The notes below the pieces were generated by a model. It saw only the letters and a list, made by a program, of their open reading frames with translations, did not search any database and was not told where the DNA came from. The translations under genes were made by a program, and so were the position numbers. Shown piece after piece: positions 23,303-49,439 of a DNA stretch of 64,000 bases. Within the stretch, counting starts at the first letter, position 1. Every line of letters starts with the position of its first letter. Origin of the DNA: an uncultured Planctomycetaceae bacterium (lineage in GTDB: Bacteria; Planctomycetota; Planctomycetia; Planctomycetales; Planctomycetaceae); NCBI GenBank assembly GCA_963815195.1, contig CAWFGE010000015.1, positions 512,001 to 576,000 on the forward strand, in the 5' to 3' direction.

Positions 23303-26300
23303 CTATCTGCCCCGCAGTTGGCGGAGGATCTCCTCGATGCTTTCCAGTTGGCTCTTGAGGTTCGCCAGCGTTTCGCGGACATCGTTCACCACGTGCTCCG
23401 GGGCCTTTTGGACGAAGTTTTCGTTGGCGAGCTTCTTTTCGTGGCCTTTGATGAAGCCGCGGAGCTTCTCGGCCTCTTTTTCCTGGCGTTCGATCTCCTC
23501 CCGGATGTTGATCACGCCTTCCAGCGGAACAAAGCCGTCGGCATCGGGCAGGGCGAAGTTCGCCGACGCCGGCGGACGCTGCACTTCCGCCCCCGCCGCT
23601 TCGAGCACGGTTTTCGCGAGGTTATCGAACTGGTCCGCGACTTCGTTCAAGTCGGCCGCCACATTCTCCGGGCAGCGGATGTAGAGCGTCAACGGCGTCA
23701 TGGGGCCGATGTTGTAAACCGCCCGCAAGTTCCGCACCGCGACAATCGTGTCCTGCAACCGCTCGAACCGCGATTCCAGCGATTCATCCTGCCAGTCCTT
23801 GGGAAGTTCCGGCCAAGGGGCGATCATCACGCTCTCGGCGGCGGGTTCTGGATTAAGCAAACCGCGTTCGGGGGCGATCTCGTTCAACCGTTGCCAAAGC
23901 TCCTCGGTGATAAACGGCGTAAAGGGCTGGAGCATGCGGAGCAGGGCATCCATCACGCCCACCAACACCCGCTGCGCCGCCGGGCGGTCGGCCTCATCCC
24001 GCAGGCGGGGCTTGATCATCTCCAAATACCAGTCGCAGAACTCGTTCCAGGTGAAATCCCTGAGCGCCCGCGTCGCTGCATCGAACTGATACCGCGAAAG
24101 CAGCGTCGTCAATTGCTCCGACACCGTGGACAATCGGCTCAAAATCCAGCGGTCCTCCATATGCAATCCCCCCAAGCCGACGGCTCCGCCGTCGGAATCC
24201 GATTCGTCGGCTTGGGCCTCGGGCGTGATCGGACCTGGGGTGTAGCCTTCGAGGTTCAAAAGCGCAAACCGGCAGGCGTTCCAGAGTTTGTTGCAGAACT
24301 TCTGCCCATACTCGAACCGCTCGCTGACCACCCGCGCGATCGGCTGGTTGCCTTCGGCATCGTACAGCGGCGTCGAGAACTGGCTTTCCGTTTTGCACTG
24401 GGGGCAGACGAGCACCGGCTTGGGCTGGCCCGCCGGGATCGGAAATTTTCCCTTGAGGGTATGAGGCACGATGACCGATGCCGTGTCCACCTTGTAGAGC
24501 TTGGCCTCGACCAGTTCCTCGCAGTGCGGGCATTCGTAACTGATGGGCAGCCTGACGTCCTGCGTTTCCCCGGCGAAGGAGGCGATCGTAAACCGCACCG
24601 CATCGGTGCCGTATTTGTCGATCAGATCGGACAGGATCGACGCCGTTGCCTTTGGATTTGGACATCTTCTGCCCGAACCCATCCTGCAAATTCGGATGCA
24701 CGCACACATGATGAAACGGCACATCGCCCATGTTATAAAGCCCCGTGAGCACCATCCGCGCCACCCAGAGTGTGATAATGTCCCGCGCCGTCACCAGCAC
24801 ATTGCCGGGGTAGAAGTAATCGAGAACTTCGTTCTTCCCCTTTCCCAAGCCGACACCTTTGGTGTCGGTCTCCGACGACAAGTCGTCGGCTTGGGCTAAA
24901 GGCGGATTGTGATCCAAATCCGGCCAGCCCAAAGTCTCATGCGGCCAAAGCGCGGAACTAAACCACGTATCGAGCACATCGGGGTCTTGTTTGAAACCTG
25001 CTGATTCAAAGACTTGCTCGAGGTCAGGTCGGTCTGCATCAATGCAACATAGAAGCAATGCCTGACTGCTTTCATCGACTTGAATGTGATAGGCGACGGT
25101 CTCTTCGGCCCCTGGTGCCAATCGATCGCCTTGCTTACCAAGCGTTTCTGAATCTAAACCAAGAAGCTTATCGAGGATTTCCTTCAGTTTGGCGTTCTGT
25201 TCAAGATCCAATTCGCCTTTTGTGAAGATTCTCGACCACACCGGAATCCGGTGCCCCCACCAGAGTTGCCTGCTGATGCACCAGTCGCGCTTTTCGCCCA
25301 ACCAATCTTGATAGGTCTTCGCGAACCGCGAGGGATAGAACTTCACGCGGCCATCCGAAACCGCATCCATCGCGGCTTGCGCCAGATCGTCCATCTTGAC
25401 GAACCACTGGTCCGACAAATACGGCTCGATCGGCGTCTTTGAGCGGTCGCTGTGCTTGATCGGAATGACGCGGTCCACCACCTCCACGAAGTGGCCCAGG
25501 CTTTCCATCTTGTCGGTGACCTTGTCCCGGCATTCGTAGCGGTCCAGACCTTCGTAGGGCGCACCGTTTTCGTTGATGGTCCCATCGGGATTCAAAATGT
25601 TGATCAGCCCGATTTCCGGGTTCCGCTGGAAACAGGCGTAGTCGTTGGGATCGTGCGCGGGCGTGACTTTCACCGCCCCGGTGCCCATTTCCGGGTCCGC
25701 GAGTTGGGCGTCGGCGATGATCGGAATCAGCCGCCCGTTGAGCGGAATCTGCACCTTCTGCCCGATGAGATTTTGATAGCGCTCGTCGGACGGATGCACG
25801 CACACCGCGGTGTCGCCCAGCATCGTTTCCGGCCGGGTCGTGGAGAAGGCAATCTTTTTGCCCGTCGGTTTTCCATCTTCATTGACCACGGGATAGGTAA
25901 ACGTCCAAAAGTGGCCTGCGACATCCTCGTCGAACACTTCATCGTCGGCGACGGCGGTTTGCAGATAGGTGTCCCAGTTGACGAGCCGTTTTCCGCGGTA
26001 GATCAGGCCGTCACTAAAGAACTTGAAGAACGTCCGCCGAACCGCTTTGGAGCAGACTTCGTCCAAAGTAAACCGCGTCCGCCGCCAGTCGCAGCTCGCC
26101 CCCAAGAGTTTGAGTTGCCCGAGGATCCGCTCTTCGTAGGCGTCTTTCCATTTCCAGATGCGGTTGACCAAAGCCTCGCGGCCGACGTCGTGCCGGGTCA
26201 GGCCTTCCTCTTCGAGCATCCGCCGTTCCACGACCGCTTGTGTAGCGATCCCCGCGTGATCGGTGCCGGGCATCCACAGGGCTTCGTAACCCTGCATCCG

Positions 26301-26510
26301 CCGCCAGCGGGTGATCAAATCCTGCAGCGTCCCGTTGAGCGCATGCCCCATGTGCAGCGCCCCGGTGACGTTGGGCAGGGGGATCATAATCGTATGCGGT
26401 TTTTTGTCGGGATGGGGGTCCGCGTTAAAATAGCCGCGCTCTTCCCAAAACGGATACCAACGATCCTGAGCCGCCTGGGGTTCGTATTGCTTGGGGATGT
26501 CCGTGCTCAT
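23303..26510 (-). CDS. valS: Valine--tRNA ligase; frameshift near 24630
   Basis: PNVTGALHMGH, DHAGIATQ, TTRPET, DWCISRQLWWGHRIP, DVLDTWFSS, KMSKSKGNGVDP, C-terminal coiled coil. Confidence 0.97.
24171..24216. repeat. Y-shaped CCCAAGCCGAC palindromic element, in frame inside valS
   Basis: CCCAAG-CCGACGGC-TCC-GCCGTCGG-AAT-CCGA-TTCG-TCGG-CTTGGG. Confidence 0.85.
24844..24895. repeat. Y-shaped CCCAAGCCGAC palindromic element, in frame inside valS
   Basis: CCCAAG-CCGACACC-TTT-GGTGTCGG-TCT-CCGACGAC-AA-GTCGTCGG-CTTGGG. Confidence 0.9.
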
Positions 26511-26567
26511 GCGAGTTGAATTCTTAATCCTAGTTTTGGACTCAATCTTAATCCCATTGGGTCAGCA

Positions 26568-27203
26568 TCAAGGCAGCAGCACATCGCTAACGGAGATGGC
26601 AACGACTCTTCCATCCGGCAGTGCCAAGGAAATATCATCTCCAGGCAAAAAGTTTTCCGTCTTTGCGTATTGTCCGCTGCCGATCTGGGGCTGGGTATAA
26701 ACCTCGATTTCATTCGACAACAAGTTGACAATCCAATAGGTAGGGATTCCCGCGTCGGCATAGATCTGCTGCTTCGTGCCGCGGTCCCGGCGGAGCGAAC
26801 TATCCGCCACTTCCATGACCGCCACGGTATCGACCGGCCCAGGATGTCGGTTCAAATAATCATCCAGATGGCCGGAGGCAATCGTGACATCGGGTTCTGG
26901 CTCGTTGTTGGGAGGAAGAGTGATCGGTTGTTGACAGAGTACATGAATCTGATTGGTCTCCACTTCTTTTTCCACAAGCTTAAACAATCGCATCACAATG
27001 ACAGAATGCCTGGTCCCCACATTCATTGGCTTTCCCCCCCGATCACGACGGTCCTTGAGCACCAACAACCCGTCAAGAAGTTCGATTTGCGAACCTTCTC
27101 CGAGGATTCCGTTTGCAATCATCTGGTGATATTGCTCTACCGTCAGCGGAGCCAACCCCGCATCGTTTCCCGCAATAATTTGTTCCAAAATCTCGATACC
27201 CAT
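26568..27203 (-). CDS. Uma2 family endonuclease
   Basis: LTVEQYHQMIANGIL...IELLDG, EPEPDV, EVADSSLRRDRGTKQQIYADAGIPTYWIVNL. Confidence 0.93.
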   Translation of the reverse strand: MGIEILEQIIAGNDAGLAPLTVEQYHQMIANGILGEGSQIELLDGLLVLKDRRDRGGKPMNVGTRHSVIVMRLFKLVEKEVETNQIHVLCQQPITLPPNNEPEPDVTIASGHLDDYLNRHPGPVDTVAVMEVADSSLRRDRGTKQQIYADAGIPTYWIVNLLSNEIEVYTQPQIGSGQYAKTENFLPGDDISLALPDGRVVAISVSDVLLP

Positions 27204-27209
27204 AAAGCC

Positions 27210-48656: not shown

Positions 48657-48747
48657 GATACTGCTCCCTTTTGGGTTCGTTCTCAAACGTTTTCCACCTT
48701 CAAATTACAGCGAACCAATAAGCAGGGCAACGAGATTTTTGAGATCT

Positions 48748-49368
48748 CTATGGGATTCGCGATGCCAACCATGCAACCAGCTTCTCCGCCACCGCGGTTT
48801 TGGTGCCGGACCACATTTGGATAACCTCGCCGGAGCCATCGATCAACTCGACGCTGTTGGTTTCCGCACCGATGGCGGCGGGGGCGTTTAAGACGATCCA
48901 ATCGCAGTTTTTGGCCCGCAGTTTTTGGAGGGCGTTTTCTCTGGGATTATGGGCTTCCAAAGCGAAGCCGACGACCCAGTGGCCGTCTTTCATCCGGCCG
49001 AGTTCCGCGAGCACATCGTCGGTTTCGATCATCTCGATCGAGACCGGTTCACCGGTTTTGGCGATCTTCCCGCGGATTCGCTCCTTCGGCTTGTAGTCGC
49101 AGACCGCGGCGGCGGCGATTACGCCGTCGCAATGCGGAAACGCCGCGACGCACGCGTCCCGCATCTGGGCTGTCGTCTCCACCGCGTGCACTTCGCAGCC
49201 CACGGGCGGATGCAAATCCACCGGCCCGGTCACCAGCACGACTTCATGCCCCGCCTTCAATGCCGCCTCCGCGAGGGCATACCCCATCCGCCCGCTGCTG
49301 GCGTTTGAGAGATACCGCACATCGTCCAAGTATTCCCGCGTCGGGCCGGCCGTGATGAGGATTCTCAT
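48748..49368 (-). CDS. coaB: Phosphopantothenate--cysteine ligase (stand-alone CoaB/DFP domain)
   Basis: ILITAGPTREYLDDVRYLSNASSGRMG, AAAVCDY, VGFALE. Confidence 0.9.
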   Translation of the reverse strand: MRILITAGPTREYLDDVRYLSNASSGRMGYALAEAALKAGHEVVLVTGPVDLHPPVGCEVHAVETTAQMRDACVAAFPHCDGVIAAAAVCDYKPKERIRGKIAKTGEPVSIEMIETDDVLAELGRMKDGHWVVGFALEAHNPRENALQKLRAKNCDWIVLNAPAAIGAETNSVELIDGSGEVIQMWSGTKTAVAEKLVAWLASRIP

Positions 49369-49388
49369 GTTCGCATTTTCTTTATTTA

Positions 49389-49439
49389 CCCAAGCCGACG
49401 CCTTGGCGTCGGAACCGACAACGGAGTTGTCGGCTTGGG
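49389..49439. repeat. Y-shaped CCCAAGCCGAC palindromic element, intergenic copy
   Basis: CCCAAG-CCGACGCC-TT-GGCGTCGG-AA-CCGACAAC-GGA-GTTGTCGG-CTTGGG. Confidence 0.9.

Follow-up and report, generated by a model that had tools for sequence, protein, structure and literature searches.

The DNA analysed here, hereafter the window, is a 64,000-nucleotide (nt) stretch from an uncultured Planctomycetaceae bacterium (G000:C15:512001-576000, where G000 denotes the organism's own draft genome of 8.87 Mb in 25 contigs with 59.7% G+C). The window contains five copies of a short palindromic repeat that we call the Y element, four of which lie within core genes, namely those for valyl-tRNA synthetase (ValRS; two copies), a CimA/LeuA-like protein and FtsK (Table 1). 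All five copies, which had been listed in an earlier reading of this sequence (the original prediction), were real and correctly placed, the peptides quoted for the four copies inside core genes were correct, and each copy turned out to be part of a genome-wide family. Copy 1 has a shortened second arm.

Table 1. Copies of the Y element in the window, their host genes and in-frame units of a second repeat family (family 2, described below). Coordinates are positions in the window; aa, amino acids.
Feature	Coordinates	Strand	Description
Y copy 1	24171..24216		in frame in the C-terminal half of ValRS, just ahead of the anticodon-binding domain; peptide AQADESDSDGGAVGLG
Y copy 2	24844..24895		in frame in ValRS, catalytic half; peptide AQADDLSSETDTKGVGLG
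Y copy 3	27614..27664		in frame in the CimA/LeuA-like linker between HCS_D2 and LeuA_dimer; peptide VQADDLSSVPTTESSAW
Y copy 4	44462..44513		in frame in FtsK, in the linker that joins the 4TM and alpha domains; peptide PKPPAPPSVSDDKSSAW
Y copy 5	49389..49439		intergenic by the codon-usage gene call
valS	23303..26510	-	hosts Y copies 1 and 2; read in two frames
CimA/LeuA-like gene	27210..28919	-	hosts Y copy 3 and a family-2 insert
ftsK	42843..45527	-	hosts Y copy 4 and a family-2 unit
family-2 unit	28100..28135		in frame in the CimA-like gene; 11 aa, ASVGRQPHDSS
family-2 unit	44575..44615		in frame in the FtsK linker, ~80 nt from Y copy 4

The consensus of the Y element consists of CCCAAG, a hairpin (CCGNCNNC-tt-GNNGNCGG), a spacer of 1-4 nt, a second hairpin (CCGNCNNC-aa-GNNGNCGG) and CTTGGG. 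In each element, a 6-bp outer stem (CCCAAG/CTTGGG) encloses two 8-bp hairpins, with a unit of ~24 nt; the commonest form is 49 nt long and the range is 49-52 nt. The consensus is identical to its reverse complement, so that any match scores on both strands and orientation is meaningless. The earlier statement that the copies occur in both orientations therefore has no content, and the four host genes in the window all lie on the minus strand.

We searched the genome with a covariance model of the Y element, as had been proposed with the original prediction, training the model on 24 copies that had been preselected for pairing. The search returned at least 52 distinct places in the organism's own genome at E<1e-3, spread over at least 15 contigs, and allowed intragenic and intergenic copies to be counted. 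The 10-nt terminus of the element, with one mismatch or none, occurred 25 times in the window, compared with a mean of 7.0 in shuffled sequences, and 0 out of 100 shuffles reached 25. A scan for the three-way shape that was blind to sequence (two 8-bp hairpins enclosed by a 6-bp outer stem) detected 33 sites in the genome and 6 in the reversed genome, and 32 of the 33 genomic sites belonged to the Y-element family; a strict scan for perfect Y shapes gave 21 and 0 hits, respectively. No Rfam family matched any copy at E values up to 1 across window positions 20000-52000. Elsewhere in the window, a near-threshold Rfam match to Acido-Lenti-1 RNA (23051-23096, minus strand; 34.4 bits versus a gathering score of 37; E 2e-4) sits ~200 nt downstream of the valS stop codon.

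The stems of the Y element covary, as had been claimed from the five copies of the window. When the 24 copies were laid onto the Y fold, 98.7% of cells paired, a value that 0 out of 500 shuffles matched and that is partly circular because the copies had been chosen for pairing. The two-sided changes are free of this circularity: 8 of the 22 base pairs had changed on both sides, and G-U pairs occupied 2 out of 528 cells. We also considered, and rejected, a single long hairpin in which the left half of the element pairs with the right half. This fold paired 84.0% of cells versus 87.8% in shuffled sequences, with 500 out of 500 shuffles scoring at least as high; no pair had changed on both sides, and the variable positions were unpaired in 19-22 of the 24 copies. 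The long-hairpin test is unaffected by the way in which the copies had been selected.

Homodimers, in which the same arm occurs twice, accounted for 0 out of 38 compact copies, and the three homodimeric copies known all have spacers of 16-22 nt. The Y element is an obligate heterodimer: the two local hairpins are kept and a perfect long palindrome is avoided. About eight solo half units turned up, either standing alone or as part of tandem arrays (for example, C16:60850-60960). The minimum-energy structure was the Y in 20 out of 38 copies with DNA parameters and in 16 out of 38 with RNA parameters; thermodynamics do not decide the fold, and the Y shape rests on covariation. Perfect long palindromes would be avoided owing to their instability, and the hairpins may be kept at the DNA level or on both strands, either by selection or by hairpin-templated correction.

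The Y element is limited to a narrow clade of Pirellulales. All three congeners carried it (26-68 model matches each, both strands counted), as did one other genus (G018; 57 model matches), and three further genera had one or two places each. The covariance model did not find the element in the other 33 of the 41 genomes searched. A scan for the exact pattern in one genome per species across 185,579 species gave 18 loci in five assemblies, all of them labelled Pirellulales or Planctomycetaceae.

Within the organism's own genome, 40 out of 52 copies were intergenic and 12 lay within genes. The intergenic copies were mainly found between tandem genes (32 copies), with 7 between convergent and 1 between divergent genes, at a median of 19 nt past the upstream stop codon (typically 2-30 nt) and a median of 67 nt ahead of the next start codon. 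This 3'-end placement is the classic position of repetitive extragenic palindromic (REP) sequences. In the window, copy 5 lies 204 nt after the stop codon of a minus-strand gene ending at 49644 and 20 nt before the called start (49368) of the next minus-strand gene; this start codon is uncertain, and a longer open reading frame (ORF; 48748-49506) would take in the copy. The copies were also clustered, with 13 adjacent pairs no more than 10 kb apart versus 2.9 expected. A run of TTTT occurred within 12 nt in 5 out of 46 downstream flanks, so we rejected canonical intrinsic terminators (a GC-rich hairpin plus a T run) as an identity for the element. Two paralogous gene pairs (G000:C8:267998-269763 and C16:58371-62431) each have a Y copy between their genes; either the repeat was copied together with the genes in a duplication, or one slot may have been used more than once.

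According to Pfam, the hosts of the intragenic copies were ValRS (twice), the CimA/LeuA-like synthase, FtsK, SMC (twice, in two adjacent ORFs), a 2316-aa UvrA-like protein, a YfhO-like membrane protein, a DUF4175 protein, an AAA_22 ATPase and a squalene-cyclase-like protein; the twelfth copy formed the final 16 codons of an AlgH-like gene. The reading frame was preserved in each of the 11 internal copies, and the four intragenic copies of the window lie in inter-domain linkers, between Pfam domains, in proteins unrelated to each other. The three frames of the element were used 8, 3 and 1 times, and 33 out of 38 copies were free of stop codons in all six frames. Intragenic copies were mostly 51-52 nt long with 3-nt loops, and intergenic copies were mostly 49 nt long, a split that fits the survival of only those variants that add whole codons. 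Judging from these sequences, the in-frame copies are likely translated as extra loops. The original prediction held that the element favours or tolerates coding sequence: tolerance is borne out by the 12 copies that lie within genes and by the frame that they keep, whereas a preference is contradicted by the 40 intergenic ones. The copies would have arisen through the insertion of pre-formed units of slightly differing length, of which only multiple-of-three insertions into permissive linkers would have survived within genes, perhaps helped by the absence of stop codons in the six frames of the element. In a separate observation, SMC is split at G000:C16:149155-152015 into two adjacent ORFs 17 nt apart, each with a 69-nt Y copy; this split may be an assembly indel.

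Empty-site alleles exist, both in congeners and in independent metagenome contigs, and alignment of ValRS, CimA and FtsK to their orthologues upheld the view that the Y inserts add loops that the orthologues do not have. For ValRS copy 1, we observed an exact 48-nt gap in G002; the copy was also missing in G001, and the site in G003 held a Y copy with different arms, slightly shifted. Contigs of relatives in the public runs X2 and X3 (soil, wetland) skip positions 24160-24227 and have 18-19 other letters between, a net loss of 48 nt, and a contig of run X1 spans the copy with 0 differences. The empty sites have flanks too diverged for the boundaries of the element to be fixed.

ValRS copy 2 is common to the organism's own genome and G002, and the site has another short sequence in G001 and a family-2 unit in G003. 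Arm A differs on both sides between the first two genomes, being GAC/GTC in the organism's own genome and GGC/GCC in G002, and indels in a loop and the spacer offset each other so that the length is kept; both stems are perfect, and the peptide changes from DDLSSETDTK to DGFAVGSDTQ with the stems intact. By this comparison, the structure appears to be conserved rather than the encoded peptide, which would not be the object that is maintained. An independent contig of run X2 over 24522-24930 is identical save for 1 nt and reproduces the copy. As to valS itself, its two frames stem from one extra base near 24632-24633 (window 24629-24633), just after the KMSKS motif. This base is missing in all three congeners and in an otherwise identical 408-nt contig of an independent run, and it is most likely an assembly error, not the sign of a broken gene.

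The Y insert of CimA (copy 3) was present in the organism's own genome and G002, the site in G003 held a family-2 doublet, and the insert was missing in 10 out of 11 orthologues from other genera, with a different insert in G015. The FtsK copy is common to G001 (partly decayed there) and missing in G003, and G002 has another repeat sequence; the UvrA-like copy is common to G002, where it has decayed. The Y peptides were missing from orthologues of other genera in the CimA and UvrA-like comparisons. An AlphaFold2 model of CimA placed residues 416-441 (the Y insert) in coil with a predicted local distance difference test score (pLDDT) of <50, and residues 263-272 (the family-2 insert) likewise had a pLDDT of <50. 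The model is moderate (mean pLDDT 69, 12 sequences) and other segments also score low, so the mapping of the inserts to loops that it suggests is weak support.

Family 2, with core GGGGCTGACGCCCC and tail CGCTCGCC, is unrelated to the Y element. We found 260 units in the organism's own genome, often as inverted doublets, versus 0 in the reversed control. In the window, the family occurs at 12877-12890, 18054-18079 and 59020-59033 as well as at the two places of Table 1; the insert in the CimA-like gene is 33 nt long and was present in the organism's own genome and G002 only. By one strict test, 8 out of 260 family-2 units were intragenic versus 9 out of 52 Y copies, indicating that the Y element is the more gene-tolerant of the two.

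The two families share slots. The orthologous-site comparison covered some of the Y sites and resolved ~14, and at 9 of these the slot held a Y element in one species and family 2, as one unit or as a doublet, in a congener. The shared slots are the ValRS copy-2 site, the CimA linker, the FtsK site, the UvrA-like loop and five intergenic sites; those outside the window are G000:C12:888701, C13:341817, C13:681653, C13:682654, C17:344536 and C17:346975. In the reverse mapping, five out of six mappable family-2 sites in syntenic loci of the relatives fell on Y slots of the organism's own genome, and the sixth fell on a third inverted-repeat element. Overlap by chance would be a few percent per site, a rough figure reached by setting the 260 units against several thousand intergenic regions and not a computed value.

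Two explanations could account for slot sharing: a small set of permissive slots may have been hit repeatedly, or existing palindromes may be insertion targets and be replaced. The second would be a form of homing or replacement directed at hairpins, with palindromes already in place being overwritten and protein loops rewritten by competing selfish repeats; it strikes us as possible, if on the doubtful side. An 18-22-nt motif (GGCACCGACC..GGTTGGTC type) occurs within hairpins of the Y element and also within those of family 2, giving mosaics like bacterial interspersed mosaic elements (BIMEs); it was found at G000:C16:151172-151240, at L101:587-633, in the FtsK linkers of G001 and G002 (L062, L064) and at L113. 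This nesting favours palindrome-targeted replacement and is not proof of it.

Taking these results together, the Y element is likely to be a lineage-restricted REP/BIME-like repeat family that lies mostly past stop codons, has 12 of its 52 copies in genes where they are likely translated, and probably spreads as non-autonomous DNA, which it would do by the action of an enzyme. It is a new family of a known kind, since translated REP-like repeats are already known. Passages of Di Nocera, De Gregorio and Rocco (2013; PMC3733652) describe REPs near 3' ends, between tandem or convergent genes, with dimers and heterodimers preferred; they also describe REP dimers that lie inside uvrA and tRNA synthetase genes and encode 20-30 aa, as well as CGTC REPs without a dedicated transposase. 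The likeness of the Y element to the repeats of those passages lies in the short GC-rich stem-loops, the 8-bp stems, the inverted heterodimers, the distance of no more than ~20 nt from 3' ends, the patchy occurrence across lineages and the minority of copies in frame (~20 aa); the REP dimers of one species are described there as sitting inside an outer palindrome (PMC3733652). The Y element is unlike the described dimers in its spacer of 1-4 nt, in its fixed 6-bp outer stem, which makes a three-way junction, in being 23% intragenic and in its host, an uncultured Pirellulales clade. It also differs from the GTAG/CGTC-tagged REP superfamilies in having no unpaired tag: GTAG/CTAC occurred within the element or 6 nt to either side of it in 1 out of 52 copies, and CGTC occurred only in the paired stems of some arm types.

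Rickettsia palindromic elements (RPEs) are described in passages of two papers (PMC10969869, PMC3733652) as palindromic repeats of ~100-150 bp, nearly half of them intragenic, that are inserted in frame in unrelated housekeeping genes and whose mobilising enzyme is unknown. As far as these descriptions go, the Y element shares with RPEs the in-frame insertion in unrelated housekeeping genes, likely read as added peptide segments, and it differs from them in length (49-52 bp), in its intragenic fraction (23%) and in the phylum and lifestyle of its host; the distinction drawn here is one of length and description.

Two other kinds of repeat invite comparison. Like miniature inverted-repeat transposable elements, the Y element has terminal inverted repeats (11 nt), no coding capacity and a dispersed distribution; unlike them, it falls below the usual 70-300 bp, has no target-site duplication visible in its flanks and has no parent insertion sequence with Y ends that we could find. 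REPINs, according to Bertels and Rainey in 2011, are reportedly inverted doublets that form a long hairpin and are associated with RAYT transposases. The Y element likewise is an inverted doublet of a ~24-nt unit in which singletons are rare (~8 solo halves), whereas its doublet forms no long hairpin, the cross-arm positions being specifically non-complementary, and no RAYT gene was flanked by it (0 out of 38 loci).

The original prediction called the Y element mobile. The part of this claim that describes a dispersed, structure-conserved family stands, and mobility itself is an inference, with no target-site duplication, parent element or transposase found. Several results weigh against spread as non-autonomous DNA. 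We examined 38 Y1_Tnp (PF01797) loci in six genomes at E<0.1, comprising 8 in the organism's own genome and 30 in G001, G002, G003, G018 and G012, and the Y element occurred within ~1.5 kb of flank at none of them, so that the Y1/RAYT transposase flanked by the motif, which had been suggested as something to look for, was absent from all 38. All-against-all BLAST of 85 flanking or host proteins revealed no recurrent carrier gene, the largest cluster consisting of three proteins from one locus. In the flanks of the 52 copies we saw no target-site duplication, conserved flank or strong target motif. Several intergenic copies are orthologous between the organism's own genome and G001 or G002 and differ by a few substitutions; copies shared at orthologous sites among congeners indicate that most are old and vertically inherited, and recent movement is not demonstrated. 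Three features also limit the data: the 52 places are a lower bound, with 150 out of 18,506 first-look candidates scored; the gene calls come from a crude codon-usage caller made for this analysis; and the compared genomes are drafts with indel errors. Our own calls were mended for valS, which the caller had missed owing to the frameshift. A weak preference for A was seen at positions -1 and -2 (33-35 out of 84 pooled flanks), and no larger parent element with Y ends was found in the search, which returned solo half units only.

Other palindromes do accompany Y1_Tnp genes. The organism's own genome has nine Y1_Tnp matches, five of which are flanked by other REP families and none by the Y element; the Y1 proteins at C13:617125, C23:603686, C19:251616 and C13:353300 have no REPs of their own. 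These five genes (G000:C11:44538, C15:625782, C13:63436, C13:936715 and C12:908886) are flanked by two palindromic families, ATGCTCATG..CATGAGCAT (39 copies) and CACTGGCA..TGCCAGTG (77 copies), and look like ordinary REP-RAYT units. Separately, a simple hairpin family, TCCCAAGC-n3-5-GCTTGGGA, has the same outer stem as the Y element and occurs at window positions 53953 and 54345 (G000:C15:565953 and 566345) and at 22 other places; one hairpin of this family (CCCAAGC type) lies ~100 nt upstream of a Y1_Tnp-like gene (G000:C13:353300-353461).

The strongest competitor, compatible with a REP/BIME-like family and in our judgement somewhat unlikely, holds that the Y element is an RNA-level device at 3' ends, a terminator or an exonuclease-protecting hairpin, with the intragenic copies as by-products. 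It draws on placement, since 39 out of 40 intergenic copies lie past a 3' end, close behind the stop codon at the median distance given above, and most copies would be transcribed in 3' untranslated regions, which leaves room for a role at the RNA level. That sister species hold some hairpin repeat in the same intergenic slots, with the family differing, fits a need for any hairpin, and passages of the REP literature propose such roles (PMC3733652). The rarity of downstream T runs speaks against canonical intrinsic terminators, and the near-absence of G-U pairs also argues against an RNA device. So does the sharing of slots in the protein loops of ValRS, CimA and the UvrA-like protein, where a terminator would be harmful.

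A further reading, which we consider improbable, makes the element a recombination site that works as a structured single strand (attC-like, or the target of another tyrosine or HUH recombinase) and marks exchangeable slots in which repeats are swapped or captured. The attC consensus, RYYYAAC/GTTRRRY, is matched by the termini as a core pair at six out of seven positions when the flanking base is a purine, whereas its AAC/GTT is AAG/CTT in the Y element. Integron attC sites resemble the Y element in being folded, imperfect palindromes just past a stop codon whose structure is more conserved than their sequence. Most Y copies follow genes of the same direction and are clustered in pairs, slots alternate between the Y element and family 2, congeners show gene-sized differences at Y positions, and the genome has an integron-integrase match above the cut-off, all of which suit such a site. 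The stems of the Y element, by contrast, are perfect, without the extrahelical bases of attC; the copies are dispersed over contigs rather than placed beside an integrase; no Y match occurs on the integrase contig; and copies sit inside essential genes, whereas housekeeping genes are not known to harbour attC sites.

The gene-sized differences are an extra 450-1189 nt carried by congeners at four Y sites (G000:C17:345452, C13:346364, C18:48584 and C13:682654), mostly including a small gene missing from the organism's own genome; at C17:345452, a decayed Y copy comes after the extra gene in both G001 and G003. Cassette excision was rejected as their source, as the relatives are without the second flanking copy that excision needs. 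The integrase match itself (G000:C25:20804-21541; 321 bits, above the curated cut-off) is truncated by the contig end, with no cassette array seen upstream of it and no match of the Y-element model on its contig; two C-terminal fragments are found at C21:244862 and C18:170171.

Less credible still, and very unlikely on the counts, is a protein-level module, in which a peptide motif is selected for its function and the DNA palindrome is incidental. Eight of the 12 intragenic copies do use one frame and encode acidic or hydrophilic peptides (QAD...SSAW or GLG); against this, 40 out of 52 copies lie outside genes, three frames are used, orthologous copies keep their stems and change their peptide, the orthologues of other genera are without the peptide, and the CimA model puts the inserts in a low-confidence coil. 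Least of all do we believe in assembly artefacts or in intron-like removal of the intragenic copies from the message: the draft genomes do carry indel errors of single bases and the window has a frameshifted valS, but short contigs from two runs of different studies match copies 1 and 2 letter for letter, the frameshift is ~200 nt away from copy 2, at a distance of >400 nt from copy 1, and is missing in an otherwise identical contig, and the frame kept by the internal copies is what translation predicts, whereas excision would not require it.

As a REP/BIME-like family, the Y element adds free-living soil Pirellulales, whose genomes are large, to the known hosts of translated REP-like repeats, which include Rickettsia, Opitutus and a few proteobacteria; this occurrence indicates that translated repeats are not peculiar to reduced or tiny genomes. 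In planctomycete metagenome-assembled genomes, Y inserts can confound gene callers and alignments as well as indel-based phylogenetic markers. The family offers a clean case for asking why REP dimers avoid perfect palindromes, with 0 homodimers among 38 compact copies and cross-arm positions that are anti-complementary, and for asking what maintains hairpins in coding DNA, where the stems are kept and the peptide drifts. Should targeting prove to underlie the slots shared by the Y element and family 2, a structure-specific insertion mechanism that has not been known so far would be implied.

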